32,000 nucleotides of DNA from Promethearchaeum syntrophicum (GTDB taxonomy: Archaea > Asgardarchaeota > Lokiarchaeia > Sigyniarchaeales > Promethearchaeaceae): NCBI RefSeq assembly GCF_008000775.2, contig NZ_CP042905.2:3810001-3842000 (forward strand), read 5' to 3'. Numbering within the stretch: the stretch's first letter is position 1; the number at the start of each line of letters is the position of its first letter. The notes under the pieces were generated by a model. That model saw only the letters and a program-made list of their open reading frames with translations, made no database searches and had not been told where the DNA came from. The position numbers were made by a program, and so were the translations under genes. Shown here one piece after another: positions 6,214 to 30,988 of this stretch.

Positions 6214-6236
6214 CACCTTTTGGAGTATTACATATT

Positions 6237-7490: not shown

Positions 7491-7494
7491 TTCA

Positions 7495-7506
7495 TTTTTT
7501 TTTTTT
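7495..7506 (+). terminator. Oligo-T tract (T12) 5 nt after stop
   Basis: T12 at 7495-7506, directly after the 7490 stop. Confidence 0.45.
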
Positions 7507-7600
7507 CCATACATTATATATTATTAATTTTTATTTTCAGATGTAAATAATTAATTTTTTCCGAAAATTTTTACATTATTTCTGAAAACTCACAGGAAAA

Positions 7601-7990
7601 CTACTCCTCAAATTTTAATGAAATCGAATTTACACAATATCTTTTACCTGTGGGTTCTGGACCATCATTAAAAATGTGCCCTAAATGACCACCACACTTA
7701 CTGCAGAGAATTTCATCCCTAATCATTCCCAAACTAGAATCTTGTTTAATATCGATTTTTTCTTTTTTTGCAGCGAAGAAACTTGGCCAACCACAACCCG
7801 AATCAAATTTTGTATTTGAATCAAATAGTGGATTGCCACAACCAGCACAATGATATATTCCCTCTTCTTTTTTGTCCAAATATTTCCCTGTATAGGGTAT
7901 TTCTGTTTCCTTTAAACGTAGAACCCTAAATTCTTCGTCTGTTAATTTCTCGCGCCAATATTTAATATCTTTGTTAGTGTTGTTACTCAT
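7601..7990 (-). CDS. msrB: Peptide-methionine (R)-S-oxide reductase MsrB
   Basis: Zn-binding CxxC pairs (CAGCGNPLF; CSKCGGHLGHIF), GWPSF and the catalytic RYCVNS motif. The ORF extends to 8056, but the first 22 codons (MYFTFILKQILLKNIDFLIALK) look non-native. I prefer the ATG at 7988-7990 (MSNNTNKD...). Confidence 0.9.
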   Translation of the reverse strand: MSNNTNKDIKYWREKLTDEEFRVLRLKETEIPYTGKYLDKKEEGIYHCAGCGNPLFDSNTKFDSGCGWPSFFAAKKEKIDIKQDSSLGMIRDEILCSKCGGHLGHIFNDGPEPTGKRYCVNSISLKFEE

Positions 7991-8103
7991 TTTCAAAGCA
8001 ATTAAGAAATCAATATTTTTTAAAAGAATCTGTTTTAGTATAAAGGTAAAATACAAAGTATTTTTTTAGGAATAAATAAATTTTGTGTGTTTTTCTCATT
8101 ATT

Positions 8104-11784: not shown

Positions 11785-12273
11785 TTAAGATTTGATTTGG
11801 GAAACAGCGTTGCCCATACCTTTCCAATCAATACGCATTAATTTTAAAGCTTCTTTTAGAATATTTTTAATTTCTTTTGAACCATCTGTGCGAACGTACA
11901 TAACAGGAGGTTCAAGACTAGTATTTTTATAAGCAGCAAATTCGACACCTTTGCATTTAAGGACTTTAGTTATAAGATAGTTCATAAATCCATGAGACTG
12001 ATGGATTACGTGAACGTAAAACTCCGTTCCATTTTCCTCTTGCTCAACAGATATTTTCAAATATTTAAAATCTCTTTGGGGCTCAATTAATTCTTGAGAT
12101 AAACGTTCTGCTAGATCTTCTGAAGAAGTATCATCTGAAGTAGGTGAACTTGTGCTAATTAAAGATGCATTAGCTTTTTGTTCTTCTTTACGAAGATCTT
12201 CTAATCCTTCTTTGTTGTCAAATTCTCCAAAAACTTCACTGTCTAAATCATTTTCAGTTTTCTTCTTTCCCAT
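11785..12273 (-). CDS. rpoL: RNA polymerase subunit Rpo11/RpoL-like protein with N-terminal acidic/Ser-rich extension
   Basis: The C-terminal roughly 95 aa (HQSHGFMNYLITKVLKCKGVEFAAYKNTSLEPPVMYVRTDGSKEIKNILKEAL) align by eye with the archaeal Rpo11 pattern (DHTLGNLL...GVxFAxY..HPL....I.I.TDGS...AL..A). The ORF extends to 12297. The ATG at 12271-12273 is preceded by GGAAGGTTGA (SD-like). Confidence 0.55.
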   Translation of the reverse strand: MGKKKTENDLDSEVFGEFDNKEGLEDLRKEEQKANASLISTSSPTSDDTSSEDLAERLSQELIEPQRDFKYLKISVEQEENGTEFYVHVIHQSHGFMNYLITKVLKCKGVEFAAYKNTSLEPPVMYVRTDGSKEIKNILKEALKLMRIDWKGMGNAVSQIKS

Positions 12274-12311
12274 AATGTTTTCAACCTTCCATCTCAAAAA
12301 AATTTTACTTT

Positions 12312-12536
12312 TTACATTTCTAGTTCTTCGATATAAGCCCTCATTTGATGTTCAAAAAGATTAATTTTATCCTTTGGGCCGGTAACATTTAAATTTAAAC
12401 CTGAATCGTGTGTATAGCTAATTCTTATTTGAAGCCCTGAACTTTTACTTTTTTTTTGTGCAAAATGAATATAATTTTCTATATTACTAACTGAATTGGG
12501 TTTAAAAAAAAGTGATTTTTTTCCTGATTTTGCCAT
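12312..12536 (-). CDS. Small hypothetical protein (74 aa) between csl4 and rpoL-like gene
   Basis: An ORF that fills a co-directional gap in a tight gene string. No motif recognised. Confidence 0.4.
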   Translation of the reverse strand: MAKSGKKSLFFKPNSVSNIENYIHFAQKKSKSSGLQIRISYTHDSGLNLNVTGPKDKINLFEHQMRAYIEELEM

Positions 12537-12584
12537 TTCATCTATCTCATTTTCTGAAAATTTTATTTGAGGTGATACTTTTCT

Positions 12585-13178
12585 CTAAAAACGAAGTAAA
12601 ATCTCAACTTCACCATAATCTGAAGCAATTTTTTTCCTTTCTGAGTGATTGCAAAAAAGACATTTTACTTGATCGCGACCTTTACGTTCCATTTTATGAC
12701 CGCAGTATTTACAATTTGAAAGGATAACACCTAAATTCGTTGAATTTGTTGCAACTTTCCACTCTTTTCCAAACTTTGATAAAACTCTCGCACGAACTAA
12801 ATCAGTTTTTTGAAATACATTATCTAATTTATCAACATAACTTTTAGAAACACTAGAAACGTGAATATTTGCAAAGGTTCCATTTCTAACAATAACCTTA
12901 CCATTGAGAGAAATCATCCGAACTCCAACTGAATTCTTTCTGATCATTGAAACTTCGCCAATAATTAAATCTCCTTGCTTTGGAATTATCCTCTTTTCTT
13001 CATTGTGGGCATTAATATGTATTAATCGTTCTTGTTCATTAATATCTAAAATACCGTTAATTGCGGCATAAATATTGCCATTTTCTGAATATGTTGAGTC
13101 TTGTGAACCTAAAAATTGCTCTTCAAAACCTAATTCATCACCAATTTTTACAATATCACCTGATTTTGGGATTGCCAT
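12585..13178 (-). CDS. csl4: Exosome complex RNA-binding subunit Csl4
   Basis: N-terminal domain, a central S1-like barrel (GDLIIGEVSMIRKNSVGVRMISLNG...IHVSSVS) and a C-terminal zinc ribbon CKYCGHKMERKGRDQVKCLFCNH (CxxC...CxxC). Sits next to rpoL and a COG2263-type methylase, a known archaeal arrangement. Confidence 0.8.
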   Translation of the reverse strand: MAIPKSGDIVKIGDELGFEEQFLGSQDSTYSENGNIYAAINGILDINEQERLIHINAHNEEKRIIPKQGDLIIGEVSMIRKNSVGVRMISLNGKVIVRNGTFANIHVSSVSKSYVDKLDNVFQKTDLVRARVLSKFGKEWKVATNSTNLGVILSNCKYCGHKMERKGRDQVKCLFCNHSERKKIASDYGEVEILLRF

Positions 13179-13241
13179 ACATTTTTCATCTGCATCTGTT
13201 GCTAAATAATTAAATGTAGCAAACCTTTTAGATTTATATCA

Positions 13242-13937
13242 ATGAAACGAGCGATGAAAAAAAGCGAATTTATAAATTATATCCAAAGCCTAAAATCATT
13301 TCAAAACCCAAAAATTGCATATGAACAATATCAAACCGATGCAATTGCAACAGCGGATTTATTTTTCCACATGGCCTTTGAGTTAAATGATTTGTCAGAA
13401 AATCTAATCGTGGATTTGGGGGCAGGAACAGGAAATTTTACAATTGCAGCTATTTTATTAGGATGTTCAAAAGTAATTGCAGTAGATTTGGATACAAAAG
13501 CATTATCTATTTTAAAAGAAAACGCATCGGAATTCAATATTTATAATAAAATTCATATAATTCATGCAGATTTGCGAGAAAAAGATATTACTTATGAAAT
13601 TGAAAATTTTAAAAACGAAAATTTTGATGAAAACAGTAAAATTGTTGTGGTTTCAAATCCACCATTTGGTGTTCATAATAAGGGAGCAGATATTATTTTT
13701 CTTTCTCAAGCTTTTAAATTTGCAGATATCATTTATTCTATCCATAACTCGGATGAAAAAACACGCGCATATCTAGCTAAAAAAATTGCAAAATTTGGCG
13801 GAATTGTTTCAGAACGAGCAACCCTCTATTTAATGCTTAAAAAAACCTATAAATTCCACTCTAAAAAAGTTAAACGAATAAAAACAGATGTTTATCGAAT
13901 AGTAAATAAAAAAAAAGGTATACATTCTCAAAAATAA
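13242..13937 (+). CDS. METTL5/COG2263-type SAM-dependent N6-adenine RNA methyltransferase
   Basis: YEQYQTDAIATADL (EQYxT box), SAM motif I VDLGAGTGNF, acidic loop AVDLD, catalytic NPPFG. Confidence 0.75.
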   Translation: MKRAMKKSEFINYIQSLKSFQNPKIAYEQYQTDAIATADLFFHMAFELNDLSENLIVDLGAGTGNFTIAAILLGCSKVIAVDLDTKALSILKENASEFNIYNKIHIIHADLREKDITYEIENFKNENFDENSKIVVVSNPPFGVHNKGADIIFLSQAFKFADIIYSIHNSDEKTRAYLAKKIAKFGGIVSERATLYLMLKKTYKFHSKKVKRIKTDVYRIVNKKKGIHSQK

Positions 13938-14046
13938 CTGCATTTTTTACTTGTAAAAAGCGAGAATAATAATTAATAAAAAATTGAAGAATAATCACTC
14001 AAATTAGTTTGAAAAATTTGCATAAGTTTAAAACCCTTACAAGTGA

Positions 14047-14706
14047 ATGGCTCCTATGGGTAGGGAAATTGTAATTATTAACGGATCTCCGCGGAAAGCG
14101 GGTTTAACTAATGCGCTAATAGAACTTTTTATTACTAAAATAAATAAATTGTCGACGCAAGGCGACCAACAACCAGATGCACATAAAATCGAATGTAAAA
14201 AAAAATAATTAAGTGAATACCATATTAATCATTGTATTGCATGTGATGCATGTCTACGAAAGCCACACGAGTGTCCTCAGTCAAAACATGATGATATGAC
14301 CAAATTAGATGCGATTCTGACACAAGCAGATGGGATTGTCATGTGTAGCCCTTCCTATTTCGCAAATGTGACGGGACTTATGAAAGATCTGATCGACCGC
14401 ACTCGTCCGCTAAAGATGGCAAAATACCGTCTGAAAAACAAATACTTTTCTGTGATCGCTACTTGGGGATTGCGAGCAGGGGGGTTGAATACGGTACAGG
14501 AAGTGCTAAACCAGTTCGCATTAATCCATGGAATGGTTGTAGTTGGGGCGGTTGGTCATCCTTTATTAATGGCGAATCTTCCTACGGAAACTGGGCAAAT
14601 GGAACACTTAAAAGAATTTCGGAATCCAGCAGTAATTAGTGAGGTTGCCCAAATCAATGTGGAAAGTCTCGCCCAGAGATTTTGGGATTTAATGCAAGAA
14701 TATTAA
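14047..14706 (+). pseudogene. Iron-sulfur flavoprotein (Isf / NADPH-dependent FMN reductase family) interrupted by an in-frame TAA at 14206-14208
   Basis: From the ATG at 14047 I read MAPMGREIVIINGSPRKAGLTNALIELF...HKIECKKK, then TAA. The same frame continues LSEYHINHCIACDACLRKPHECPQSKHDDM... into the listed ORF 14296..14706. GSPRK is the flavodoxin-like FMN loop. C-x2-C-x2-C-x5-C matches the compact Isf [4Fe-4S] motif. SPSYFANVTGLMKDLIDR is the family core. Confidence 0.7.
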
Positions 14707-14804: not shown

Positions 14805-16457
14805 TTAGCGTTTTCGCTTGAAAACGAATATAATTCCGATCCCTACACATAAAAGGATTAAACTTAAGCTGGGTCCGGGGATATTTAATGATACTTCGAT
14901 TAATACATCATAATATGCTCCGAAATAGCACCTATCATCTAAGGTAGGATCAATTAACAATCCTACATGAATTTGACCTTCATATGCCCCAGGATAATGC
15001 ATTTCCCAACTCTTATTCACGCTTGCATCAGCAGCCAAATTTCCGATCGTTTGATTTTGACCTCCATTGTTCACATATTCTGGTCCACCATCACTTTTTA
15101 TACCTGATTCTATCTCAAAATTGTATGTATCTGGACCGAGATTTTTCATCTCCATACTAACTATGACATTATCCGGGTATGTAGTGTTAAATGCAGATAA
15201 TGCTAATGTATATTCAACTTCATGACCCCATTCCCCATTTATCGTTTGCAATATTTCCATTCTTCCTCTATAACTTGTTAGTAACAGTACATCATCCGTT
15301 ACCGGATTCACGCAAATTTCATGGTTACCTTCTCCTTGGGTATATACCGAATAGGAAAAGTCGGTAAGAGTCTCGGAAACCCAACCACCCGAGCGATTAG
15401 TGGTATAAACTATCTGTTGAATTTCATTCTCTGTAACAACGCTGAAAACTAAAACGTTATCGTTAGCATCTAAAGCCATTTCTGGGTAATTTGAAACAGG
15501 TCCGATTTTATATGCATCCGAACCATCGGTCGTGGCATTTATTACATCATAATATAACCCAGAATTTTCTTCGTCCCAAGAGCCATTTTCCAGCTGATAA
15601 ATTTGGTTGTAAATAAAGTGAATTGTATCGGTAGAATCGATTTTTATATTTGGTGATTCGCACTTCGAACCATAAATTGGGGATTTCTCCGCAATGCACC
15701 GAGGAGAAGATTCAATCCCACTGGGCGAGATTGTTACATAATATATTGAATTATTGACCTGGAATACAATGTGGGCCAAACCCGTCGAGTCAACAGCCAT
15801 TTTAGGGAAGAATACATAATGAAGAGGGTGTGATTCCTCGTAGCTAATAATATGTCGGGTATAGTTAACGGATTCCGAATCTTCCTCATCAGCAAATTCA
15901 GCAAGGGTAAGATTAGTATATACTAACCCATCATCATCATAACTGATCATATAGATCATTGAACCTGATGGGTTTCCCGTGATTCCAAATGAGAGTTGAC
16001 TTCCTCCGACCCCTTTCTGGTACCAAGATCCATCAGCAGTTTTATTTGTAATATAATTAACAAAAGTTGCTCCATGGGAGTAAATGTGCACATCCCCTTC
16101 ATTATCTACATAAATATCATTGGCTTGAAAGTTGACATATGTAGGATCGATTAATAATTCAGGTTCTGACCAACTTCCCGTAGCATTATCAATATAGTAA
16201 ACATTATGTCCTTCTTCCCAAGTACCGCTATACACAATTGATACAGTTCCTGTTGGACCAATAGCCATATCTCCTTCAAGAGTAAAATCATCCAAATACT
16301 CCCAATAGGGTACTATAGCCGTTTTTGGTCCCACTATTAGTGTTTCTGTTGGGTATCCGTAGCCATTTACCTGATTAATTGCTAAATTGCTTCCTATCAA
16401 AAATACGAAGATCCCCAGCAGAAAAATTCTTTGCTTTGTATGTTTCATAAAATTCAC
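14805..16457 (-). CDS. Secreted beta-propeller-like protein with CARDB/Ig-like module and C-terminal membrane anchor
   Basis: Signal peptide (RIFLLGIFVFLIGSNLAINQVNG). Seven spaced repeats of a D/P-x-x-G/D-x-hydrophobic strand: PTGTVSIVYS, DNEGDVHIYS, NPSGSMIYMIS, DSTGLAHIVF, DSTDTIHFIY, DANDNVLVFS, PVTDDVLLLTS. CARDB-like VIVSMEMKNLGPDTYNFEIE. C-terminus NIPGPSLSLILLCVGIGIIFVFKRKR. 11 N-x-S/T sequons. Confidence 0.6.
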   Translation of the reverse strand: MNFMKHTKQRIFLLGIFVFLIGSNLAINQVNGYGYPTETLIVGPKTAIVPYWEYLDDFTLEGDMAIGPTGTVSIVYSGTWEEGHNVYYIDNATGSWSEPELLIDPTYVNFQANDIYVDNEGDVHIYSHGATFVNYITNKTADGSWYQKGVGGSQLSFGITGNPSGSMIYMISYDDDGLVYTNLTLAEFADEEDSESVNYTRHIISYEESHPLHYVFFPKMAVDSTGLAHIVFQVNNSIYYVTISPSGIESSPRCIAEKSPIYGSKCESPNIKIDSTDTIHFIYNQIYQLENGSWDEENSGLYYDVINATTDGSDAYKIGPVSNYPEMALDANDNVLVFSVVTENEIQQIVYTTNRSGGWVSETLTDFSYSVYTQGEGNHEICVNPVTDDVLLLTSYRGRMEILQTINGEWGHEVEYTLALSAFNTTYPDNVIVSMEMKNLGPDTYNFEIESGIKSDGGPEYVNNGGQNQTIGNLAADASVNKSWEMHYPGAYEGQIHVGLLIDPTLDDRCYFGAYYDVLIEVSLNIPGPSLSLILLCVGIGIIFVFKRKR

Positions 16458-20840: not shown

Positions 20841-21059
20841 GCATAAATTGAATATATTCTAGTAAAAAAACTTTTAATAGAAAAAAATGGAATCTAACAT
20901 ACCAAATTTTCTTTTGAGAAATAGGATTTGTTACAAAAAATTAAATAATTTTATTAGAAAAACTAATCCCAATTTAGAAAAAGAAATAATAGGTTATTTG
21001 AAATTAAAGATGTGAACAAATTGATTAAATTTAGTGATAAACAACTTAAAATTCCAAAA

Positions 21060-22442
21060 ATGAGCAAACCGGTTTATTTAGCTACTGTCGGAATGTCGAA
21101 ATTTGGAAGATCTTTTCCTGAAACGCGAACTGAAGAACTTGCAATTCAAGCTTTAACCGCTGCAGCAGATTTCTTAAAAATGACTCCTGCAGAGCTCAAA
21201 AGTTATATCCATACTTGTTATTATGGTCATTTTGCAGATCATTTCGGAGATCAATTATTGGGTGAATCAGTCATTCATGATAGATTGGGATTAGATCCGC
21301 TTGGAAATATTGGTGTTAAAACTGGAGGTGCTACAGGGGGCTCTACAATGTGGGAAGCAATAAAAGCTGTAGCTTCTGGATATAGTAATTGTTCCTTAGC
21401 GCTTGGATGGGAAAGAATGGATGAAGCTCCGACTGATGAGGGAAACCATTTAATTTCTGCAGCCGCAGATAAAGATTGGGAAACCCCAATGGGCCACATT
21501 TATACAGGTTATTATGCAGTTATGGCCCAGCGTTATTGGAAGATTTTCGGAAAATCTGAAGATTCTTTTAGACGTACTATGGCAGAAGTATCGGTAAAAA
21601 ATCATGGATATGCAAGGATGAATCCTTATGCACAAGCTCCTATGAAAATTACTGTTGATGATGTAATTAAATCACCAATTGTAGCTGATCCTTTACGTGT
21701 ATTAGATTGTTGCTTAATGAGTGTAGGTGCTGCATGTGGTATAGTCTGTGATGAGAAAACTGCTTATGAATTAACCGATAATCCGCTACGAATATGGATT
21801 GGAGCAGGAAGTCACACTTTACGTGTTGCAGACCGACGTGATATGGAAATTCCACTACTTCCAAACGAAAAAGTAGGACAATATGATGATTTAGCTACAA
21901 GATTTCCAGGTGCTGATCGCTATCCAGGATTTACTGGTTTCTTAGCGGCGCGTGTAGCGGCTTATTATGCTTACAATATGACAGGTATCAAGGATCCGAC
22001 AGACGATCTTGATGTTGTTGAACTTCATGATGCATTTACAATAAGTGATATCCAAACTTATGAAGATGTAGGAATTCGTCCTTACGGTGAGGGTCGAGAT
22101 TATATTGAGTCTGGAGATGCATACCATATCAATCCTAAAACGGGGAAACCAGGAAAACTGCCTAGCAATCTTAGTGGTGGATTAATTGGAACTATGCATG
22201 CAGTAGGTGCTACAGGTTTAATGCAAATTGCAGAAGTTGGATATCAAATTTGGAATAGATGGGATGAAATACACGAAGATTCCGCCAAATGGAAAGAATT
22301 TGGTCGAGAAAAACCGAGTGATTGGACAAGCCTACAGGTTAAAGGGGCAAAAAGAGGACTAGCAATCAGTCATGCAGGAGTAGGATCACATGTTACTGCT
22401 ACAATTCTAATGGACCCAAATCATTTACTCAAGGAGGACTAA
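21060..22442 (+). CDS. Thiolase-fold (SCP-x/archaeal type) protein lacking the canonical catalytic cysteines
   Basis: MSKPVYLATVGMSKFG start, GWERM (GxEKM), VADPLRVLDCC, ELHDAF, SGGLIGTMHAVGATG. The nucleophile box reads GGATGG where CASGG is expected (Gly codon 21327-21329). The HDCF box reads HDAF (22026-22037). The ORF track begins at a GTG (21012); I prefer the ATG at 21060. Confidence 0.8.
   Translation: MSKPVYLATVGMSKFGRSFPETRTEELAIQALTAAADFLKMTPAELKSYIHTCYYGHFADHFGDQLLGESVIHDRLGLDPLGNIGVKTGGATGGSTMWEAIKAVASGYSNCSLALGWERMDEAPTDEGNHLISAAADKDWETPMGHIYTGYYAVMAQRYWKIFGKSEDSFRRTMAEVSVKNHGYARMNPYAQAPMKITVDDVIKSPIVADPLRVLDCCLMSVGAACGIVCDEKTAYELTDNPLRIWIGAGSHTLRVADRRDMEIPLLPNEKVGQYDDLATRFPGADRYPGFTGFLAARVAAYYAYNMTGIKDPTDDLDVVELHDAFTISDIQTYEDVGIRPYGEGRDYIESGDAYHINPKTGKPGKLPSNLSGGLIGTMHAVGATGLMQIAEVGYQIWNRWDEIHEDSAKWKEFGREKPSDWTSLQVKGAKRGLAISHAGVGSHVTATILMDPNHLLKED
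22431..22438 (+). promoter_or_regulatory. Shine-Dalgarno-like AAGGAGGA 8 nt upstream of the DUF35 ATG (translational coupling with thiolase-like gene)
   Basis: AAGGAGGA lies inside the 3' end of the upstream CDS, with a stop-to-start gap of 4 nt. Similar boxes precede the 24321 ATG (GAGGGAG) and the minus-strand ATG at 29953-29955 (AAGGAGGA). Confidence 0.5.
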
Positions 22443-22446
22443 GAAA

Positions 22447-23046
22447 ATGGTCAAAGCAGAAGAAGATATTGGAAGAGTAAAAATTGTAAATGGAAGATAT
22501 AAATTAAGTGGAAAATTCCATATTCCTGAAGCAAATCAACCAATTTTTAATGAAGATACTGGAAAATTGGCAGGCATAACCAATCCAAGAGATATGACTT
22601 ACGTACATTCCTACGGTGGGGAAGCGATTTTCTTTGAAGGAATAGCTACAGGAAAACTTTGGGCTTCACGTTGTGATAACGAAAAATGCGCAAATCCTGG
22701 AACTATCTATGAACCATTTAGAATTTATTGCCCTGATTGCCTAAGGAAAGCAACACCAATAGATATCACAGAAAAGGCGCGAAAAACTGCAAGAGTTCAT
22801 TCATATATAATAACCGCACGTTCTGGGGCCTTTAATTCTCTAAAATTGCCAATAAAATTTATAAATGTTGAATTTGAAGGTGTGGCTACAATTTTAATGG
22901 GATATCTATCCGTGGGAGAACCAGAAATGGGAATGCGTGTTGTGCCCATTTTTAATACTAAAAAACCAACCTATACAATTGTTGACATCTCTTGGGTTCC
23001 TGAAGGTACTAAAGAATCAGAATTACCAGAAGGATTTACTTTTTAA
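22447..23046 (+). CDS. DUF35 (Zn-ribbon + OB-fold) acyl-CoA-associated protein
   Basis: Zinc ribbon CDNEKC...CPDC, followed by an OB-fold-like segment (ARVHSYIITARSGAFNSLKLPIKFINVEFEG...MGMRVVP). Canonical partner position immediately after a thiolase-fold gene. Confidence 0.8.
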   Translation: MVKAEEDIGRVKIVNGRYKLSGKFHIPEANQPIFNEDTGKLAGITNPRDMTYVHSYGGEAIFFEGIATGKLWASRCDNEKCANPGTIYEPFRIYCPDCLRKATPIDITEKARKTARVHSYIITARSGAFNSLKLPIKFINVEFEGVATILMGYLSVGEPEMGMRVVPIFNTKKPTYTIVDISWVPEGTKESELPEGFTF

Positions 23047-23123: not shown

Positions 23124-24305
23124 ATGAATCATATTTTTTACAGCGAAGAAGAATTAGCGTTTAGGGATGAAGTTAGAGCCTTTTGTGAAAGGGAACTTGC
23201 ACCTTACGAAGATGAAATCCAAAAAACCAATCCCTTTAGGCGAGATCTACTACAAAAAATCGCACAAGCGGGTTATATGTCTGTACACCATCCTCCAGAA
23301 GTAGGAATTGGAAAACACTGTGGAAAAGGCTTGGTATATGAAACTATCGTAGCAGAAGAAATTTCAGCAGTCATTGCAGGTCTTGATATGGCTCGAATGG
23401 CTTCAGCGACTCTTTTTGGAAAACCTGTAGCTCGTTTTGGAACACCAGAACAGATCGAAAAATATTTAAAACCAGTATTACGAGGGGAAAAAATAGGAGC
23501 GATAGGAATAACAGAACCAAATGTTGGATCGGATACTGCTCGGATGGAAACTCATGCAGAAATTTCAAAAGATGGAAAGGGTTTCGTTCTTAATGGCAAG
23601 AAATATTATATTACAAATGGAAGTCAAGCGGATTTCTTGTGTGTCTTTGCAATTACCGATAACACAGTAAATCCAAGAAAAGGAATGACAGCTTTCATTG
23701 TTGAAAAGACTATGCCTGGATTTACTACCGTGAAAGATATAGATCTAATGGGAATGGCTGGTTCACGTGTTTCCGAATTAGCTTTTAAAGATGTTTTTAT
23801 TTCTAATGATCAATTATTAGGAGGAATAAACAACGGCTTCGGCATCCTTATGGATGAACTTGACTCAGAACGCGTTGCTATTGCAGGAGAATGTCTTGGA
23901 TATGCAAGACCTGCCTTAGAAAGTGCAATAACCTATTCAAAAGAACGCATTCAATTTAAACGACCCATCAAAGATTTTGAAGGAATTAATTTTAAAATTG
24001 CAGATATGGCTACAGACTTTGAAGCAGCGCGTTTACTTACGTTAAAAGCTGCACGCGCTTATGATAATGGCGAAAGAATTACCAAGGAGGCGGCTATGGC
24101 GAAAATATTTGCTTCTGAAATGGCCATTCGGGTATGTGATCAAGCCCTTCAAATACTTGGTGGAAGAGGATATGAAAAGGAGCATAAAATCGAACGCTAC
24201 TATCGTGATGCTAGACTCATGACTATGGGTGGAGGTACTGTAGAAATTCTCCGTTATTTAACTCAGCGAGAAATTTACAAAAAATTTGATGGTAAATATT
24301 GGTAA
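23124..24305 (+). CDS. Acyl-CoA dehydrogenase (FAD-dependent), IVD/LCAD-type catalytic-base placement
   Basis: GITEPNVGSDTARM, YITNGSQADF, and the C-terminal YYRDARLMTMGGGTVEILR. Gly sits at the MCAD Glu376-equivalent position (codon 24231-24233). Glu sits in LDSER (codon 23868-23870), equivalent to IVD LDLER. Confidence 0.9.
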   Translation: MNHIFYSEEELAFRDEVRAFCERELAPYEDEIQKTNPFRRDLLQKIAQAGYMSVHHPPEVGIGKHCGKGLVYETIVAEEISAVIAGLDMARMASATLFGKPVARFGTPEQIEKYLKPVLRGEKIGAIGITEPNVGSDTARMETHAEISKDGKGFVLNGKKYYITNGSQADFLCVFAITDNTVNPRKGMTAFIVEKTMPGFTTVKDIDLMGMAGSRVSELAFKDVFISNDQLLGGINNGFGILMDELDSERVAIAGECLGYARPALESAITYSKERIQFKRPIKDFEGINFKIADMATDFEAARLLTLKAARAYDNGERITKEAAMAKIFASEMAIRVCDQALQILGGRGYEKEHKIERYYRDARLMTMGGGTVEILRYLTQREIYKKFDGKYW

Positions 24306-24320
24306 ATATGAGGGAGAAAA

Positions 24321-24752
24321 ATGGAGCACGTCAAACTAGCGGATTGGGATAAAATCCAAGTAGGAGATAAAGGTTTTCACGGAAAAACTATAACCGAAAC
24401 GGATCTTGTTCTTTTTGCGGGAATTTCTGGAGATTTTAATCCAATGCATGTAAATAAAGAATATGCAAAAAATACCAAATATGGGAAGAGAATCGTACAT
24501 GGAATCGTGAGTGTTTCCTTAATAGCGGGCGTATTAGGAATGAAACTTCCTGGGCCAGGAACAGTTCACGTTTCCCAAAAGGTAGATTTTAAAAAGCCAG
24601 TTTTCATCGGAGATACTTTAACTGCTGTGGCTGAAATCTTAGAAAAATTTACGAAAAAGGAAGGGAAACTAAGATTTCTCAAAATTAAAACTGATGTTTA
24701 CAATCAAAATAAAGAAATTGTAACTGACGGTGAAGCCTTAGTAATTATCTAA
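24321..24752 (+). CDS. MaoC-like (R)-specific enoyl-CoA hydratase (hot-dog fold)
   Basis: Hydratase-2 motif FAGISGDFNPMHVNKEYA; 143 aa single hot-dog. SD-like GAGGGAG upstream, with a 15-nt gap after the ACAD gene. Confidence 0.85.
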   Translation: MEHVKLADWDKIQVGDKGFHGKTITETDLVLFAGISGDFNPMHVNKEYAKNTKYGKRIVHGIVSVSLIAGVLGMKLPGPGTVHVSQKVDFKKPVFIGDTLTAVAEILEKFTKKEGKLRFLKIKTDVYNQNKEIVTDGEALVII

Positions 24753-24899: not shown

Positions 24900-27800
24900 A
24901 TGCAAAATTCTTCAACAAATCAGAATTATATTGGAATTAATATTGGATCCGTCTCTGTTAATGTTGTAATTTCTGATAATTTTGGAACTTTTAAGTGCGA
25001 AAAAAAAGCCCATTTTGGAAATCCACAGCAAATTTTAAAGGAAATTCTTGAAAAATACGAAAATGGAGACCAGAAATTTTTTGGAGTTTCGGGTACATTT
25101 GGAATTGTTTCTGAAATTACAGCTATTGAAAGAGCACTTGCCTCTTTAGAAAAAAAATATGATCTAATTCTTTCTCTCGGGGGGGAGGCATTCATTTTAT
25201 ACGTTTTGGATTCAAATGGACACATTGTAAACATTTTATCTCAAGATAAATGTGCTGCTGGAAGTGGAGAATTTTTCATACAACAAATTGAAAGATTAAA
25301 TCTGCCATTGAATGAAGCAATTGACTTAGCAGAAAAAGGTGAGGATATTCAGATAGCATCGCGCTGTTCAGTTCATTGTAAATCAGATATAACTCATAAA
25401 TTGAATAAAGGAGAAGCATCAATTGAAGATGTTCTTTGCTCTTTAGTATCCAATATGATCAATAAAGGGATTGGTCTAATTTATCAATCTCGAGTTAATT
25501 TAACAAACCTTTTAATAATTGGGGGACTTTCACTTAACAAAGTTGTTCTTCAGAAATTACGAAAGGCTTTACCTGAAGCACATGTAGATAAACTTGAATT
25601 TAGTCACGTTTTTGAAGCATACGGAACATCTTTGTTAGTACAGGATAATCCAGAATACAAAATTCCAAAATTAATCACAAATAAAACATTTTCTATGCTT
25701 CCTTCATTGCACGAATATGGACATCTTGTTAAAATCATGGAAAAACCAGGTGTCAATGAAAAATTTGATCCTCAATCTTCATATATATTAGGTATTGATG
25801 TCGGATCAACAACTACTAAAGCAATTTTGATGCATCCGAAAAATAATGCAATAATTGCATCCCATTATGGTCGCACAAATGGAAACCCAATTGAAGCTAC
25901 AAGATCATGTTTAAGGGAAATTATCAAACAAACGGGTGATGAAAGAGGAAAAATAAGTTTAGTTGGAGTAACTGGTTCAGGAAGACAAGTTGTAGCAGCT
26001 TATTTAGGAACTCCTGCAGTTTTTAATGAAATTTCTGCTCATTCGATTGGAGCGGCCTATTTTGATTCAGAAGTAGATACAATATTTGAGATAGGAGGCC
26101 AAGATGCTAAATATATGCTCTTGCAAAATGGCGTCCCAGTTGATTATGCAATGAATGCATCATGTTCAGCTGGGACTGGAAGTTTTCTTGAAGAAAGCGC
26201 CAAATGTGATTTAGATATTCATGTTTATGATATTAGTGATATTGCATTAAAAGCTCCAAAAGCTGTAAGATTTAAAGCAGATTGTGCCGCTTTTATTAAT
26301 TCTGATATTCGTACTGCCCTTCAAGAGGGCTATTCTAAACAGAATATTATTAGCGGACTTGTTTATTCTATTGTTAATAATTATCTAAATAAAGTTAAGG
26401 GGACTAGACCAATAGGAGATAAAATTTTCTTCCAAGGAGGCGTCGCAAAAAATAATGCTGTTGGTTATGCATTTGCCCAAGTAACTGGAAGAGAGATAAT
26501 TATCCCTCCGTTTCCAGAATTGATGGGTGCCTTCGGAATCGCATTAATCGCTAAATCGAAACTGGAAAAAAGAGAAATTTCATCAATGTCCTCCTCTACA
26601 ACATTGAAATCATTAATTGAACCATCATTAAAACATCTTGGTAATTTTACCTGTAAATCTTGTGATAATTTTTGTCAAATTGAAAATTATGCAGTTGGAA
26701 ATCGAAAATTCCCTTTCGGAGGGAGATGTACTAAATATGAACATTTATGGAAAGGGCAGAAATCAGCTTCGGAGAAGAAAGATTATGTATCTTTTCGTAA
26801 TGATTTAATGTTTCCGGGTAATGTTTTAATAGATAAAAAAAAAAAAATCAATGAGAAAAATCAAATTGGAATACCAAGAGCATTATTAACTCACAGTTTG
26901 TTTCCACTCTTTTCTACTTTTTTCAAAGAAATCGGATATGAAGTAGTATTGTCTGATATTGAACCTGATGCAGAATTACTACCCAATGCTCCACTGTGTT
27001 ATCCAATTCAAATTTTGCATGGTGCCATCGCCAATTTGATCAAACAAAACATTAAATTAATCTTTTTACCATATATTTACAGAATGAAGAAAGGAGAAGG
27101 ATGGTTTGATTCAACTTTTTGTCCAATTTCCCAATCTAGTTCTTATTTAGTTGCTCCAAATTTTGAAAAAGTTGAAATTCTAAAACCTGAATTAGAATTT
27201 TCAGAAGGATATGAAAAATGTCAAGAATTAATAAATTTAGCTATAGAAAAGTTATATATCCCCCATAAAATGAGTGTGGCGGCTTATAATAAAGCAGTAC
27301 GCCATCAAAATAATGTAGAAACCCAATTTATTAAAAAAGGTAGGGAAATTTTAAAAAAACTATCCAAGTCGAATGATACAGGAATCATTGTAGTAGGGAG
27401 AAGCTATAATGTTTTCCCTAAAGAAACTTCGCAATCTATTCCCAAAAAAATAACGAGTATGGGAGTTACTGTAATTCCTTTTGATTTCTTAGAAAAAAAA
27501 TCAGTAACAACTTATCCTTGGTTCTTTGCTAACTATGTTTCAGAAGCTGTTGAGCTAGTTAAAAAGCATGAGAATTTGTTTTTACTTTACATTAATAGTT
27601 ATAGTTGCACAATGGATGCTTTTGTTCAGAATTATGTACGTACAGAAATGAAATCTAAACCGTATTTACTCATGGAATTAGATGCCCATATGGCGGATGC
27701 AGGAACTCAGACTAGAATCGAAGCTTTTTTGGAAATTATTAAAAATTATCGTCATTCTTTACAGAACACTTCATCTTCAGTGTATCACATGGCAAAAGCT

Positions 27801-29159
27801 GAAACTGAAAATGGAAAAGCAGTAATTACTACATCCTCTGGTGAAAAATTGGACCCTAATGATCCTCGTGTAAAAATATATCTCCCCCCTTTCTCAACTT
27901 TCCATACCGATTTAGCGGAAAAACTTCTTACAAAATTTGGATTTAATATGGGACATACAGGTGATATAAAATTAGAATATCCCGTAGAAGGATTGAAACA
28001 CTGTTCAGGAAAAGAATGTAATCCCCTACCGGCAGTATTAGGGCATATTATGCATTTAGTAAAAAATCGTGAACCTGGAGAGGTTATAGGGTATTTTATG
28101 TTACGAGGAGGGCAACCGTGTGTTGTTTTTAGTTATTTCCAATTTTTAGAACAGTTTTTAACAAAAAATCGAATAAAGGATGTGTTTATTTTTTGTTTCG
28201 ACAAGTATAATGATTTCATGGGAGTTAATATATTAGAATATCTTCAACAAGGTCCAAAAATTGTAGTTTTAGGAGATATTATGAATGAAATTGAAAGCGC
28301 ACTTGAAGTTGTCGGGAAAGGTAAAAGTTTAGAAAAGTTTCATTCATATTGGAGAAATTTCTTGGAAAGCTTCACTGATATACAAGATATAAATCGTGAA
28401 ATGAACATACTTATCCAGAAAATTAAAAAATTGCCAATAATCGGATCACCCCAAATGTTTCCTAAAGTTTGTTTAACAGGAGATTTCTTTGTTCGGTTTA
28501 GCCCATTTTTCCTTCATGATCTAAAATCAGCTTACACGAAGAATAAGATTATTGTAAAATCATCAGAATTATTTGAACTTTTTACCTATGGTGTACCCTT
28601 TGGTAACATGGTTAGCTATAAAGTCCGAGATCAATATTTACAAAAGATACGGGCAAAATTTCATGGGAAAGATCGGATTTGGAATGATTTTTCTTTTGGA
28701 TTTTATGCAAGCCAAATTGCATATTTTGTGATGAGAATTATTGAAAAAAGAATGCGCAAAAAATTCGAAAAAACCGGTCTTCTTTTCTCTAAACCAACGG
28801 ACATCATGAAAATTGTAAAAAATGCAGAACCTCATATCAATCCAAATATTTTTGGGGAAGCTATCTTGAATATTGGAAAAGGAATTGAAATAATAAATGA
28901 TCGAGAATTTAATGGGCTTATCCTAATCGGACCCCAATATTGTTTACCTTATCGTATATCTCAAGCAATTCTTCAACCTATCTTTATTGAAAATAAATAT
29001 CCGTTTTTAGTATTTGATGCAGAAATTACAGCGATGTCTCCAAATATGAAAAGATTAATTTCTGCTAATATCGAACAGATCAACCGTAGATTTAAGAGAA
29101 TGGTTCCTGTTTTATCTGAAGACACTGTTAAAATGGAAGGAAAAAAGATATTCCTTTAA
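24900..29159 (+). CDS. Giant fusion: two BcrAD/BadFG-type (HgdC-like) activase ATPase domains + DUF2229-type C-terminal region
   Basis: ATPase 1 (about aa 1-260): IGINIGSVSVN, DKCAAGSGEFF, ASRCSVHCKSDI. ATPase 2 (about aa 295-555): LGIDVGSTTTKA, NASCSAGTGSFLE, KADCAAFINSDI, FQGGVAKN. Cys cluster C-x2-C-x3-C-x17-C at 26652-26729. The long remainder (about 850 aa) resembles the CoA-enzyme-activase-associated DUF2229 region (GIPRALL..., VVGRSYN..., LTGDFFVRF...). Confidence 0.8.
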   Translation: MQNSSTNQNYIGINIGSVSVNVVISDNFGTFKCEKKAHFGNPQQILKEILEKYENGDQKFFGVSGTFGIVSEITAIERALASLEKKYDLILSLGGEAFILYVLDSNGHIVNILSQDKCAAGSGEFFIQQIERLNLPLNEAIDLAEKGEDIQIASRCSVHCKSDITHKLNKGEASIEDVLCSLVSNMINKGIGLIYQSRVNLTNLLIIGGLSLNKVVLQKLRKALPEAHVDKLEFSHVFEAYGTSLLVQDNPEYKIPKLITNKTFSMLPSLHEYGHLVKIMEKPGVNEKFDPQSSYILGIDVGSTTTKAILMHPKNNAIIASHYGRTNGNPIEATRSCLREIIKQTGDERGKISLVGVTGSGRQVVAAYLGTPAVFNEISAHSIGAAYFDSEVDTIFEIGGQDAKYMLLQNGVPVDYAMNASCSAGTGSFLEESAKCDLDIHVYDISDIALKAPKAVRFKADCAAFINSDIRTALQEGYSKQNIISGLVYSIVNNYLNKVKGTRPIGDKIFFQGGVAKNNAVGYAFAQVTGREIIIPPFPELMGAFGIALIAKSKLEKREISSMSSSTTLKSLIEPSLKHLGNFTCKSCDNFCQIENYAVGNRKFPFGGRCTKYEHLWKGQKSASEKKDYVSFRNDLMFPGNVLIDKKKKINEKNQIGIPRALLTHSLFPLFSTFFKEIGYEVVLSDIEPDAELLPNAPLCYPIQILHGAIANLIKQNIKLIFLPYIYRMKKGEGWFDSTFCPISQSSSYLVAPNFEKVEILKPELEFSEGYEKCQELINLAIEKLYIPHKMSVAAYNKAVRHQNNVETQFIKKGREILKKLSKSNDTGIIVVGRSYNVFPKETSQSIPKKITSMGVTVIPFDFLEKKSVTTYPWFFANYVSEAVELVKKHENLFLLYINSYSCTMDAFVQNYVRTEMKSKPYLLMELDAHMADAGTQTRIEAFLEIIKNYRHSLQNTSSSVYHMAKAETENGKAVITTSSGEKLDPNDPRVKIYLPPFSTFHTDLAEKLLTKFGFNMGHTGDIKLEYPVEGLKHCSGKECNPLPAVLGHIMHLVKNREPGEVIGYFMLRGGQPCVVFSYFQFLEQFLTKNRIKDVFIFCFDKYNDFMGVNILEYLQQGPKIVVLGDIMNEIESALEVVGKGKSLEKFHSYWRNFLESFTDIQDINREMNILIQKIKKLPIIGSPQMFPKVCLTGDFFVRFSPFFLHDLKSAYTKNKIIVKSSELFELFTYGVPFGNMVSYKVRDQYLQKIRAKFHGKDRIWNDFSFGFYASQIAYFVMRIIEKRMRKKFEKTGLLFSKPTDIMKIVKNAEPHINPNIFGEAILNIGKGIEIINDREFNGLILIGPQYCLPYRISQAILQPIFIENKYPFLVFDAEITAMSPNMKRLISANIEQINRRFKRMVPVLSEDTVKMEGKKIFL

Positions 29160-29175: not shown

Positions 29176-29955
29176 TTATTTCCCAATTGCCATACCTGTT
29201 GGATCTAGTTCTCTTAATAATTGAACTTCTTCGCGCGTAGGGATCGGAGTTGTGGGAACATCTTCGGGAATAATAATTTCAAAACCACAATTATTTCGGA
29301 TATCTTCTTTAGAGATTCCTGGATGAATCGTCTCCAATTTCATTATTTTGGTCATTTCGTCAAATCCATAGACTCCAAGTTGAGTTATTACTTTAATTGG
29401 TCCACTATTTTCAGGAAGTCCCGCTTTTTCTCGAGCACCTGGTCCATCTAAATACCCAGGACTAGTGATGAAGGTTACATTCTCAACGAAATTTCGTTTA
29501 CTTTGTCGGATAATAATTATAAAATTATGACTCAATGAAGCAACATCATTTCCCCCTCCACTTCCAGGTAATCGCACTTTAGGTTTCGCCCAAGATTCGC
29601 CTATGTATGTTGTATTAAGATTTCCATATTTATCCAATTCAGCACCTCCAAGAAAACCGTAATCAGTCCATCCTGCTTGGGAAAAACTCATATTATCATG
29701 CATTGTACTGATGGAAATTGCGCGATATCCCGTTCTTGAATCACCTACAGATATAGGAAGAGTTCTCATCTGAGGTCCGATGGAACCTGCTTCAAAAATG
29801 AGTAATAAATTAGGTGCATGAGTCCGTTGGGCAAACATAGCAGCAATCATAGGAAGTCCCGTGCCCACAAAAACAGATTTATTATCTTTAAGCGCTTTTC
29901 CCGCAGTTACAGCCATTAAATGGGTTGCAGTGTAATAAGTATCATTTTGAGCCAT
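29176..29955 (-). CDS. CoA-transferase family I, subunit B (glutaconate/3-oxoacid CoA-transferase beta-like)
   Basis: LLLIFEAGSIG (catalytic-Glu context ExG), PGSGGGND, and VITQLGVY in the C-terminal segment. The ATG at 29953-29955 is preceded by AAGGAGGA and lies 1 nt after the subunit A stop. The ORF track's 29976 start is less likely. Confidence 0.8.
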   Translation of the reverse strand: MAQNDTYYTATHLMAVTAGKALKDNKSVFVGTGLPMIAAMFAQRTHAPNLLLIFEAGSIGPQMRTLPISVGDSRTGYRAISISTMHDNMSFSQAGWTDYGFLGGAELDKYGNLNTTYIGESWAKPKVRLPGSGGGNDVASLSHNFIIIIRQSKRNFVENVTFITSPGYLDGPGAREKAGLPENSGPIKVITQLGVYGFDEMTKIMKLETIHPGISKEDIRNNCGFEIIIPEDVPTTPIPTREEVQLLRELDPTGMAIGK

Positions 29956-29956
29956 G

Positions 29957-30988
29957 TTATTTTCCTCCTTTTCCAAGCTTCTTATCTAACCAAGGAGCTT
30001 TCAAATCTGCTCGATAATGTTCTAATTCATACAAATATTTCATTTTTTCTTCTCCCCCATTCAATTTTAAATATTCTTCGAAATTTGAAACTCCAAAAAC
30101 ATATTTATCCAACCATAGTTTCAAACCCTCATCAGTCTTAGACATATCTAACCACTCACTTATCGCAACTTCATCAAAATAATATTGCCCAGGCATATTA
30201 CACGGGTGAGAACCATATTTTACCTCGATGACAGCATCAACAAAAAATCCGGGAATCAACGTTTCCCAAGGTTTTTTTCTGATTTCTTCATTATCAATAA
30301 TTTTTTCTGTGGTTACTACCAATTTTTTGGCTGCACGAGCTAATTCAAAGTCTTCAACTACATATCCATCATATTGACAATTCCCAAATTTATCCGCTCG
30401 TGGAACATGAATAAAAACAATATCAGGATTACATGAAGGAACTAAGCAGATCGGCTTCTTTGTCCAAGGATCTTCTACGACTTTCGCAGATGATTTTCTT
30501 AATGTATCTGATCCAAGCATTGTTCGTGTTGGAACAAAGGGAACTCCCATCATTCCTCCCAAGAAACGCCATTGATGCCCAGCATTACTTATCTCAGAAA
30601 CGACCTTTACTCGTCCAGATTCGACTGCATTTCGTCCACATTTTGAAAGACCCCGCATTTCATGCCCAAAACAATATGCCACCTCGATTTTGCTCAGAAT
30701 TCCACCTCCAATCATAACATCAATGTCATGAACACCAGTTTTACCTAACATCGTAAGGTTTCGTTTTTTTTGCCGAATCATTTCAAAAATTCCAGCCATG
30801 CTCACTCTAATATGCCCAAAACCACCCATGGCAATGACATCTCCATCACTAACATATTTTGAAACAGCATCTGATAAAGACATACGCTTGTCTACTAGTG
30901 CACGAGATCGTTTAGCCATCCAAGCTCGGTTTTCATCGGGATCATGCCAACCTACTAATTCCCCAGTACCTTCTTCTAAGATTTTCAT
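29957..30988 (-). CDS. CoA-transferase family I, subunit A (GctA-like)
   Basis: 343 aa. VSDGDVIAMGGFG (glycine-rich N-terminal loop), long alpha-type subunit, translationally coupled to subunit B. Confidence 0.8.
   Translation of the reverse strand: MKILEEGTGELVGWHDPDENRAWMAKRSRALVDKRMSLSDAVSKYVSDGDVIAMGGFGHIRVSMAGIFEMIRQKKRNLTMLGKTGVHDIDVMIGGGILSKIEVAYCFGHEMRGLSKCGRNAVESGRVKVVSEISNAGHQWRFLGGMMGVPFVPTRTMLGSDTLRKSSAKVVEDPWTKKPICLVPSCNPDIVFIHVPRADKFGNCQYDGYVVEDFELARAAKKLVVTTEKIIDNEEIRKKPWETLIPGFFVDAVIEVKYGSHPCNMPGQYYFDEVAISEWLDMSKTDEGLKLWLDKYVFGVSNFEEYLKLNGGEEKMKYLYELEHYRADLKAPWLDKKLGKGGK

Follow-up and report, generated by a model that had tools for sequence, protein, structure and literature searches.

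A conserved gene pair encoding a thiolase-fold protein without catalytic cysteines and a divergent DUF35 protein in Promethearchaeum syntrophicum

We analysed a stretch of 32,000 nucleotides of the Promethearchaeum syntrophicum genome (contig NZ_CP042905.2, positions 3,810,001 to 3,842,000; called the window here, with all coordinates counted from its first nucleotide) and found that it carries a gene for a thiolase-fold protein in which both catalytic cysteines are replaced, followed directly by the gene for a divergent DUF35 protein. The pair is widespread, occurs in both archaea and bacteria and is ultra-conserved, and the finding is thus more general than in the initial annotation, which had been made from the sequence alone. 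It is best classed as new in two respects, an active-site signature unlike those of Ltp2, Sal and SLP and a place in central rather than steroid metabolism; that a thiolase-fold enzyme can lack the cysteines and work with a DUF35 protein was already known. Tentatively, and with less than even confidence, we read the pair as a cysteine-independent lyase of the retro-aldol type for short 3-hydroxy(-3-methyl)acyl-coenzyme A (CoA) thioesters. The two genes are:

21012-22442 (+): thiolase-fold protein without catalytic cysteines (Pfam Thiolase_C_1, 1.5e-19; Thiolase_N, 6.8e-9)
22447-23046 (+): divergent DUF35 partner of 199 amino acids (aa), recognised by a family profile and by Foldseek; it starts 4 nucleotides past the stop codon of the thiolase-like gene

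The active site and the DUF35 partner

The start of the thiolase-like gene had been placed at the ATG at 21060, which is too far downstream. Its homologues are 473-478 aa long and keep the N-terminal sequence MIKFSDxQLKIPK, and because of this the start must be either the GTG at 21012, giving a product of 476 aa, or the TTG at 21021, giving 473 aa. Residue numbers below are those of the 476-aa form; in the shorter numbering Tyr164 becomes Y161 and Arg271 becomes R268. The best NCBIfam model was NF004982 (PRK06365, "thiolase domain-containing protein"), to which no functional meaning is attached; it matched over profile positions 14-429 of 430 with 656.9 bits and so narrowly missed its curated cut-off of 695 bits. 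When all PDB sequences were searched with phmmer, the closest relatives, aligned end to end, were the archaeal acetoacetyl-CoA thiolases 7yvy (3e-34) and 6esq (7e-34), and the SCP2-thiolase 6hsj matched at 3e-30.

Alignment to these thiolases, and a comparison of 11 representatives of a wider cysteine-less clade (described below) with 18 canonical relatives, located the following active-site elements:

21327-21329 (+): Gly106 at the position of the nucleophilic cysteine, in the box KTGGATGG; aligned by phmmer to the Cys of eaaCASGG in 7yvy and 6esq
21501-21503 (+): Tyr164, in the loop covering the active site; Tyr in 11/11 clade members, Phe in 18/18 canonical relatives
21822-21824 (+): Arg271, in the box SHTLR; Arg in 11/11 clade members, mostly Ala in canonical relatives
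22026-22037 (+): HDAF box, His339-Asp340-Ala341-Phe342; elHDAFtis aligned by phmmer to evHDCF of 6esq and 6hsj
22197-22199 (+): His396, the GHP-loop histidine, in the box MHAVGATG; aligned to GHPvGATG of 7yvy, 6esq and 6hsj, and invariant
22368-22373 (+): Ser453-His454 of the fourth catalytic loop; AISHAGVGSHV aligned by phmmer without gaps to tqNIGGtGSNI of 7yvy

These alignments confirmed what the initial annotation had reported, namely a glycine in place of the nucleophilic cysteine, HDAF in place of HDCF at exactly the coordinates it gave, and no cysteine near the nucleophile box. The nucleophile box was checked for a shift of register, and the nearest cysteine is 21 residues downstream with none within 20 residues, which rules out a register shift or an alternative cysteine nearby as the nucleophile. 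With both catalytic cysteines absent, classical covalent Claisen thiolysis is not possible as the protein is written, as had also been claimed. In the HDAF box the histidine of oxyanion hole 1 is kept and Ala341 replaces the acid/base cysteine of HDCF. This second loss is by itself not rare, as the cysteine-containing thiolase 7yvy also reads HDAF; the unusual feature is the loss of both cysteines together. Among the 120 best matches in a set of 5.8 billion proteins, which are 75-94% identical to the window protein over the full length, KTGGATGG is present in 119 and ELHDAFT in 118, and KTGGATGG was also found in all 82 anchor proteins from genome loci. A sequencing error or a pseudogene is ruled out by this invariance.

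The features of an SCP2-type or archaeal beta-ketothiolase are thus only partly present. The cysteine of the CxS loop and the acid/base cysteine of HDCF or CxG are missing, their places being taken by Gly106, HDAF and SHAG; the two-histidine oxyanion hole and the best overall similarity are there, with His396 aligning as the second histidine of the retained thioester oxyanion hole. His339, Asp340, His396 and the SGGL and GATG loops are retained throughout the cysteine-less clade, from which it appears that the enolate-stabilising half of the thiolase site survives, while the thiols are gone and new polar residues stand in the catalytic loops. Apart from the residues listed above, the clade differs from its canonical relatives in having Gly105-Gly106 for Ala-Cys, Thr108 for Ser, an inserted Tyr304-Pro305, Ala341 for Cys, Ser345 for Ala and Ser453-His454 for Asn-x. 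In the last of these, serine was found in 10/11 and histidine in 11/11 clade representatives, against asparagine (N-x-G) in 18/18 canonical relatives; classical thiolases have CxG in this loop. Ser453-His454 is therefore a signature of the clade and a candidate acid/base, Tyr164 is a candidate catalytic tyrosine, and Arg271 might bind a carboxylate of the substrate. Where these residues lie in three dimensions is judged from alignment and from known thiolase structures: Arg271 would, on the model of the Zoogloea thiolase, presumably lie near the acyl pocket, and Cys234, part of an invariant pair of cysteines (residues 233-234) that is also present in the cysteine-containing SCP2-thiolase 6hsj, presumably corresponds to Ser247 of the Zoogloea enzyme, which lines the pantetheine.

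The coupling to a DUF35 protein, which the initial annotation had also proposed, was borne out. Scanned alone, the partner stayed below the Pfam thresholds (OB_ChsH2_C, 0.018; zf-ChsH2, 0.065) and gave nothing significant in NCBIfam. A profile of 12 partner orthologues, however, matched the DUF35 structures 3irb (4e-7) and 6esq_E (9.5e-4). The AlphaFold model of the partner (mean confidence score, pLDDT, 70.8) is confident from residue 60 on, and the top 8 matches of this model in the PDB by Foldseek were all DUF35 chains, including the Ltp2 partner 6ok1_B; the matches to 3irb, 6esq, 6ok1_B and 6htj ranged from 8e-8 to 2e-4, and the TM-score against 6ok1_B, normalised to the target, was 0.72. 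By profile and by predicted fold, then, the partner is a DUF35 protein. It carries a Cys4 zinc ribbon (Cys76, 81, 95 and 98, at 22672-22740, all invariant) followed by an OB fold. Residues 1-60 form an extension absent from ordinary DUF35 proteins, with the motif GxTNPRDMTYxHSYGGE, which is strongly conserved within the family and loosely in the partners from the wider clade.

The initial annotation had compared the protein with Ltp2, and this comparison holds in part. The aldolases Ltp2 and Sal likewise carry glycine where the nucleophile would be and depend on a DUF35 partner (PMC12329534). In Ltp2 the catalytic base is Tyr294 of YDHF, at the position of the HDCF histidine, and Tyr344 is the general acid, whereas Sal uses Tyr302 (base) and Cys304 (acid) of YDCY, and SLP reads YDCF (PMC12329534). 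With the Ltp2-ChsH2 complex of Thermomonospora curvata (6ok1) our family shares the thiolase fold, the glycine, a catalysis that is not covalent, the dependence on DUF35 and also the logic of the pathway, in which an acyl-CoA dehydrogenase (ACAD) and a hydratase are followed by carbon-carbon cleavage without a dehydrogenase for the hydroxyl group. It differs in reading HDAF in 118/120 homologues in place of the YDHF of Ltp2, in having DUF35 as a separate protein of 199 aa, extended at its N-terminus in a novel way, rather than as a domain of the hydratase, and in a context of C4-C5 acyl-CoA rather than steroid metabolism. The match to 6ok1 was weak and partial (phmmer 3.5e-12, as against 3e-34 for the archaeal thiolase; query residues 89-249 only, a stretch that ends before the C-terminal half), and the NCBIfam lipid-transfer model PRK07937 gave 35.6 bits where PRK06365 gave 656.9. 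The bile-acid aldolase of Comamonas testosteroni, CtSal with the DUF35 protein Shy, and the trypanosomal TbSLP (5ab4; phmmer marginal, 7.9e-6) resemble the family in the nucleophile glycine and the SCP2-thiolase scaffold, and CtSal also in its DUF35 partner, but Sal and SLP use a Tyr-x-Cys dyad where the family has His-x-Ala. Because the HDAF box lacks the catalytic tyrosine and cysteine of the characterised aldolases and the 6ok1 match is only partial, the family does not appear to be a member of the Ltp2 or Sal families, an assignment made from motifs and match scores.

The archaeal thiolases 7yvy and 6esq have the same four catalytic loops, both histidines, a DUF35 partner and substrates of the acetoacetyl-CoA or 3-hydroxy-3-methylglutaryl-CoA (HMG-CoA) type. 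They differ in keeping the nucleophilic cysteine (6esq also that of HDCF), in their length of about 390 aa, as against 473 aa in the family with one insertion of about 30 aa and a Trp-rich one of about 25 aa, and in a DUF35 partner of 130 aa without the N-terminal extension.

In one Promethearchaeota locus (L025, 13239-17482) and about 25 others (for example L007, 13442-16712) we noted two more thiolase-like paralogues in tandem, also without the cysteines, one of 380 aa with the box FEAF and the other of 390 aa with ATGGTTGSS and the box YEPT, which has a tyrosine at the position of the catalytic tyrosine of Ltp2 and Sal. Two ordinary DUF35 genes and a crotonase gene come next. In NCBIfam the two paralogues are best matched by PRK08313 and in the PDB by 4yzo, with 6ok1 scoring 1e-18 to 6e-23. 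These paralogues fit an archaeal Ltp-like aldolase better than does the gene in the window.

Distribution and gene neighbourhood

Copies of the gene were found in at least 499 anaerobic species in a scan of one genome per GTDB species. The 120 best homologues belong to Promethearchaeota, Thermoplasmata/Thermoplasmatota, Marinimicrobia, Planctomycetes, FCB-group bacteria and Krumholzibacteria; the best 80 genome loci include Desulfobacterota, Spirochaetota, Leptospirales, Phycisphaerae and Krumholzibacteriota, and among them is a cultured carrier, Desulfopila aestuarii DSM 18488. The best matches to the window protein are 94% (P0001) and 92% (L006, a Promethearchaeota metagenome-assembled genome, MAG). 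Between archaeal and bacterial copies the thiolase-like protein is 75-80% identical over 473 aa and the partner 58-65%, which implies that the pair is probably under strong constraint and was recently transferred between the domains. The module had been put forward as an archaeal novelty; it is not specific to archaea, with copies about 77% identical in many bacterial phyla.

When 1.84 billion cluster representatives were searched exhaustively and a neighbour-joining tree was then built, a wider cysteine-less clade emerged, set apart from the cysteine-containing archaeal thiolases. Its motifs are GG[AG][TS]G, HDA[FY], GHxVG and SH[AG]G, and it has members in Bathyarchaeia, Nitrospinota, Thorarchaeota, Atabey-/Njordarchaeum and Methanolliviera. 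A Nitrospinota relative (L090, 8001-13369; 41% identity) reads GGCTGG in the nucleophile box, that is, with a cysteine one residue past the nucleophile position, and possibly represents an intermediate state or a sign that the clade can still act in beta-oxidation.

The neighbourhood of the pair was compared over 85 loci (the window, 80 genome loci and 4 metagenome loci), in which open reading frames (ORFs) were called and clustered. The partner follows directly downstream on the same strand in 70/85 loci, most exceptions being contig ends or conflicts in ORF calling. In the window the pair is followed by:

23124-24305 (+): ACAD of a 393-aa type (Pfam ACAD domains) common to the window, L006 and L061 only
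24321-24752 (+): MaoC-type (R)-specific enoyl-CoA hydratase, 143 aa (Pfam MaoC_dehydratas, 1.7e-24)
24900-29159 (+): fusion protein of 1419 aa with two BcrAD/BadFG-type activase ATPase domains, DUF2229 and a segment like 2-hydroxyglutaryl-CoA dehydratase D
29176-30988 (-): two-subunit family-I CoA-transferase, 266 and 343 aa, ORFs overlapping (Pfam CoA_trans, 7.8e-31 and 2.2e-29)

Pfam thus confirmed the ACAD and MaoC neighbours of the initial annotation. The Ltp2-type cluster of DUF35, MaoC and ACAD genes that it described is present in the window; over the family the DUF35 partner (70/85) and an ACAD (71/85) are regular members, but a MaoC gene stands beside the pair in 3/85 loci only (the window, L006 and L061). 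A crotonase is present in 30/85 loci, and one or the other hydratase in about 33. A Pfam 3-hydroxyacyl-CoA dehydrogenase (3HCDH) gene together with a canonical thiolase was found in 1/85 loci (L057), so that the oxidation step needed by a thiolase is usually missing. In that locus (129-8440, an uncultured Pseudomonadota), genes for an acetyl-CoA acetyltransferase, a 3HCDH, a crotonase, an ACAD, a split B12-dependent acyl-CoA mutase (527 and 138 aa) and the pair form, in this order, a run of eight genes on one strand, and because the canonical acetyltransferase and the 3HCDH stand beside it there, the pair is not simply the thiolase of that cluster. A B12-binding mutase small subunit was also seen directly upstream of the pair in L005 (7474-7872).

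The ACADs are not orthologous between lineages. Besides the type in the window, about 40 Promethearchaeota loci have a 444-aa type, upstream of the pair and transcribed divergently from it, a 383-aa type like butyryl-CoA dehydrogenase (Bcd) occurs in Desulfobacterota, Spirochaetota and Krumholzibacteriota, and a fourth type in L062, L071, L072 and L081. NCBIfam scans of these proteins gave generic short-chain matches only, and comparison with PDB sequences and base motifs was more informative. The ACAD of Desulfopila (L062) is a true isovaleryl-CoA dehydrogenase (IVD), with 600 bits to the IVD 4o5m, 532 to human IVD and 325 to the next class; those of L071 and L072 have the same IVD motifs, and that of L081 was grouped with L072 by length and pairwise identity, not by alignment of motifs. 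The mark of an IVD-type enzyme is a catalytic glutamate at the helix-G position, the usual YEG position being taken by glycine; in human IVD this base is Glu254. Against the Bcd 4l1f, the window ACAD reads ldSERv for ldGGRi, with Glu249 in LDSER, and mGGGt for iYEGt; judged by these motifs it has the layout of the catalytic base of IVD, with glycine (MGGGT) at the usual YEG glutamate position, but its overall similarity to IVD does not exceed that to butyryl-CoA dehydrogenases. The same swap, with the glutamate in LDSER or LTEER and glycine at the YEG position, is found in the Promethearchaeota ACAD type of about 40 loci.

Several other neighbours recur. An acetoacetate-CoA ligase (TIGR01217, 918 bits against a cut-off of 521) is encoded in 12 bacterial loci and one other (13 in all), an acyl-CoA ligase of the PRK12583 type in 21 loci and an XRE-cupin regulator in 12 bacterial loci. 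A gene of the BKACE family (beta-keto acid cleavage enzyme, Kce-like) is present in 38 loci, 37 of them Promethearchaeota; in L007, for example, it comes immediately after the DUF35 partner, at 12265-13164 (-), and is encoded on the other strand. It resembles 3-keto-5-aminohexanoate cleavage enzyme with 260 bits, under the cut-off, and the characterised BKACE enzymes that it matches react acetyl-CoA with a beta-keto acid to give acetoacetate or acetoacetyl-CoA. The CoA-transferase of the window has only distant matches to 3-oxoacid CoA-transferase A and B and could activate an acid substrate or acetoacetate; a family-I CoA-transferase pair is also found directly upstream of the thiolase-like gene in the Thermoplasmata loci L003 and L076. 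With the 1419-aa fusion, which follows the MaoC gene on the same strand and adjoins the pair in the window only, this CoA-transferase could make up a route of 2-hydroxyacyl-CoA dehydration. Canonical neighbours of the leucine pathway, such as methylcrotonyl-CoA carboxylase, were looked for and rejected: motif scans found no biotin carboxylase in the 85 loci and a biotinyl protein, unrelated, in one.

Altogether the context is one of short-chain (C4-C5), often 3-methyl-branched, acyl-CoA and acetoacetate metabolism, and steroid substrates are for that reason implausible. We also noted, in a Promethearchaeia MAG (L013), a glycyl-radical enzyme (PFL-like and Gly_radical, 798 aa; 12259-14655, +) directly downstream of the pair, in a locus that has as well a 511-aa ACAD, a ligase of the size of acetoacetate-CoA ligase and another thiolase-like/DUF35 pair. 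The pair in Desulfopila (L062, 10001-12030) is flanked by genes of a Tct (tripartite tricarboxylate) transporter, a gene of the isocitrate/isopropylmalate dehydrogenase family, a fumarase and a gene of the tannase family.

Candidate reactions of the pair

On our preferred reading, that of a lyase, the two products of the pair would form an obligate heteromer of the thiolase-fold subunit with the specialised DUF35 protein. The former would keep the machinery for a CoA-thioester enolate, namely both histidines of oxyanion hole 1 and a backbone oxyanion hole at Gly106, and with no thiol for covalent catalysis it would carry out a retro-aldol (or hydratase-lyase) cleavage of a carbon-carbon bond, with chemistry as in Ltp2 and Sal. 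The acid/base set would differ from theirs, the candidates being Tyr164, Ser453-His454 and the N-terminal extension of the partner. Substrates would be short 3-hydroxyacyl-CoAs derived from the product of the adjacent ACAD, and the best candidates carry a tertiary 3-hydroxy-3-methyl group and belong to the isovaleryl-CoA (leucine) branch: HMG-CoA might be cleaved to acetoacetate and acetyl-CoA, or 3-hydroxyisovaleryl-CoA to acetone and acetyl-CoA. The lost and kept residues, the DUF35 partner, the conservation over the family and the neighbourhoods are observations; the complex, the type of reaction, the substrate and the catalytic residues are inferred from them.

The link to IVD carries weight here since a tertiary 3-hydroxy-3-methyl intermediate can not be oxidised to a 3-keto compound and therefore can not be thiolysed. 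A lyase would explain the missing thiols, the glycine common to Ltp2 and Sal, the DUF35 partner, the occurrence of an ACAD and a hydratase in the absence of a dehydrogenase, the IVD link, and the presence of a canonical thiolase beside the pair in L057; with HMG-CoA as the substrate it would explain in addition the acetoacetate-CoA ligase and the clade-specific arginine. Genes that handle acetoacetate recur in independent lineages, which suggests the same. Functional analogues, possible by context only and of unrelated folds, are HMG-CoA lyase (a metal-dependent TIM barrel) and hydroxycinnamoyl-CoA hydratase-lyase (crotonase fold), both of which cleave a 3-hydroxyacyl-CoA by a retro-aldol reaction to a carbonyl compound and acetyl-CoA; acetoacetate, the product of HMG-CoA lyase, matches the acetoacetate-CoA ligase of the family loci.

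Several observations weigh against a lyase. Many of the adjacent ACADs are ordinary ones of the Bcd type and not of the IVD type. The tyrosine of YDHF and YDCY and Cys304 of the known aldolases are absent, and the residues proposed in their place are candidates from sequence; the AlphaFold2 model of the thiolase-like subunit, from a shallow alignment of 11 sequences, has a mean pLDDT of 31.8 and gives no active-site geometry. A methylcrotonyl-CoA carboxylase or biotin protein was not found within 10 kb in 84/85 loci, so that cleavage of HMG-CoA would depend on genes not linked to the pair, while cleavage to acetone would not account for the acetoacetate-CoA ligase. Finally, the Nitrospinota pair in L090 is the first part of an operon with genes for a 3HCDH, an ACAD and a crotonase-family enoyl-CoA hydratase (ECH); no other thiolase is encoded in it, and it looks like ordinary beta-oxidation. 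A thiolase-fold lyase might serve a shunt for leucine or isovalerate that is independent of biotin and ATP.

The Nitrospinota operon, in which a subclade takes the place of the thiolase, speaks for a true beta-ketothiolase, mainly for acetoacetyl-CoA, that works without the canonical pair of cysteines. We consider this unlikely but the main rival of the lyase, since the closest relatives in sequence are DUF35-binding acetoacetyl-CoA thiolases (7yvy and 6esq), both oxyanion-hole histidines are kept, and the acetoacetate-CoA ligase, CoA-transferase and BKACE-family neighbours make or activate acetoacetate, the usual fate of which is thiolysis. Such an enzyme might use another nucleophile, such as the invariant Cys234, Thr108 or Ser453, but the cysteine pair that includes Cys234 is shared with the SCP2-thiolase 6hsj. 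Or a ternary complex might form, in which the CoA thiolate is itself the attacking group and a second CoA site is provided by the family-specific insertions and the DUF35 extension; a heteromer acting in this way as an acetoacetyl-CoA or 3-oxoacyl-CoA thiolase, with neither catalytic cysteine nor acyl-enzyme, seems to us doubtful, somewhat more so than the thiolase reading as a whole. To our knowledge cysteine-free thiolysis is without precedent in the superfamily, which counts against either route, as do the absence of a 3HCDH from 84/85 loci, the canonical thiolase already present beside the pair in L057, and the fact that both characterised relatives with glycine at the nucleophile position are aldolases.

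The loss of both cysteines would also fit a catalytically dead pseudo-thiolase that, with DUF35, scaffolds or regulates the ACAD, hydratases or real thiolases encoded elsewhere. Dead enzymes normally relax their catalytic positions, however, and here no change is seen, in archaea or bacteria, in the catalytic loops, both histidines or the new polar residues specific to the clade, at an overall identity of 75-94%. The tight link to an ACAD would suit a scaffold, but the ACADs of different lineages are not orthologues, and a single specific protein-protein complex is less likely for that reason. Sporadic cysteine-less sequences do occur inside canonical thiolase clades as well, and DUF35 is a documented assembly factor, for example in the thiolase/HMG-CoA synthase complex (6esq) and in the Sulfolobus complex of ketothiolase, DUF35, reductase and dehydratase (bioRxiv 10.1101/2024.07.05.601840). 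On balance we regard a scaffold as improbable. Still less probable, in our view, is an acyl-CoA decarboxylase or another enolate-forming enzyme, acting on malonyl-, methylmalonyl-, glutaconyl- or 3-methylglutaconyl-CoA through the two-histidine oxyanion hole, as in the cysteine-less ketosynthase-like decarboxylases and TbSLP. The clade-specific arginine could hold a carboxylate, and in the window a CoA-transferase pair of the size of glutaconate CoA-transferase and the dehydratase/activase fusion are consistent with a glutaconyl-CoA route, but the fusion adjoins the pair in this window only and nothing points to dicarboxylyl-CoA substrates over the whole family. TbSLP, which also lacks the cysteine, decarboxylates malonyl-CoA weakly, but its kcat of 0.005 per s is very low and its authors now favour an aldolase role (PMC12329534).

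Annotation, significance and the rest of the window

In the databases the protein is named acetyl-CoA C-acetyltransferase or "thiolase domain-containing protein", and our literature searches found no study of this family, experimental or other. Papers on Ltp2 and Sal and on archaeal ketothiolase/DUF35 pairs were found, and an acetone-induced thiolase/DUF35 pair is described in Desulfotomaculum, which need not be related to the cysteine-less family. A study of archaeal fatty-acid synthesis counted on average 3.8 ketothiolase/DUF35 pairs per genome in Asgard archaea (bioRxiv 10.1101/2024.07.05.601840); the word "cysteine" is nowhere in its text, and therefore the catalytic residues appear not to have been examined there. 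If the protein is not a ketothiolase, claims of beta-oxidation, butyrate metabolism and fatty-acid synthesis for Asgard archaea, Thermoplasmata, Marinimicrobia and sulfate reducers need to be re-examined, and so do the arguments about the lipid divide that were built on such claims. As a lyase, the pair would show that the thiolase scaffold has arrived at cysteine-free carbon-carbon cleavage with a third, independent type of active site, Ltp2 and Sal being the other two, and the substrates of the pair would be small central metabolites rather than steroids. Were it instead a cysteine-free thiolase acting through a ternary complex, this would be a new mechanism in a textbook superfamily, present in Asgard archaea and many anaerobic bacteria. 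The identity of 75-94% across two domains points to strong selection and horizontal spread.

In the rest of the window no tRNA genes were found, and promoter and terminator scans were uninformative. Five other ORFs of the window, at 1962-3305 (+), 3793-5682 (-), 8083-10671 (+), 6237-7490 (+) and 14805-16457 (-) (coordinates listed jointly), encode a legumain-like C13 peptidase with Ig-like domains, a leucine-rich-repeat protein of 629 aa, an M1 aminopeptidase with HEAT repeats and a TAF2-like Ig domain, and two large products of 417 and 550 aa that have no match in Pfam.

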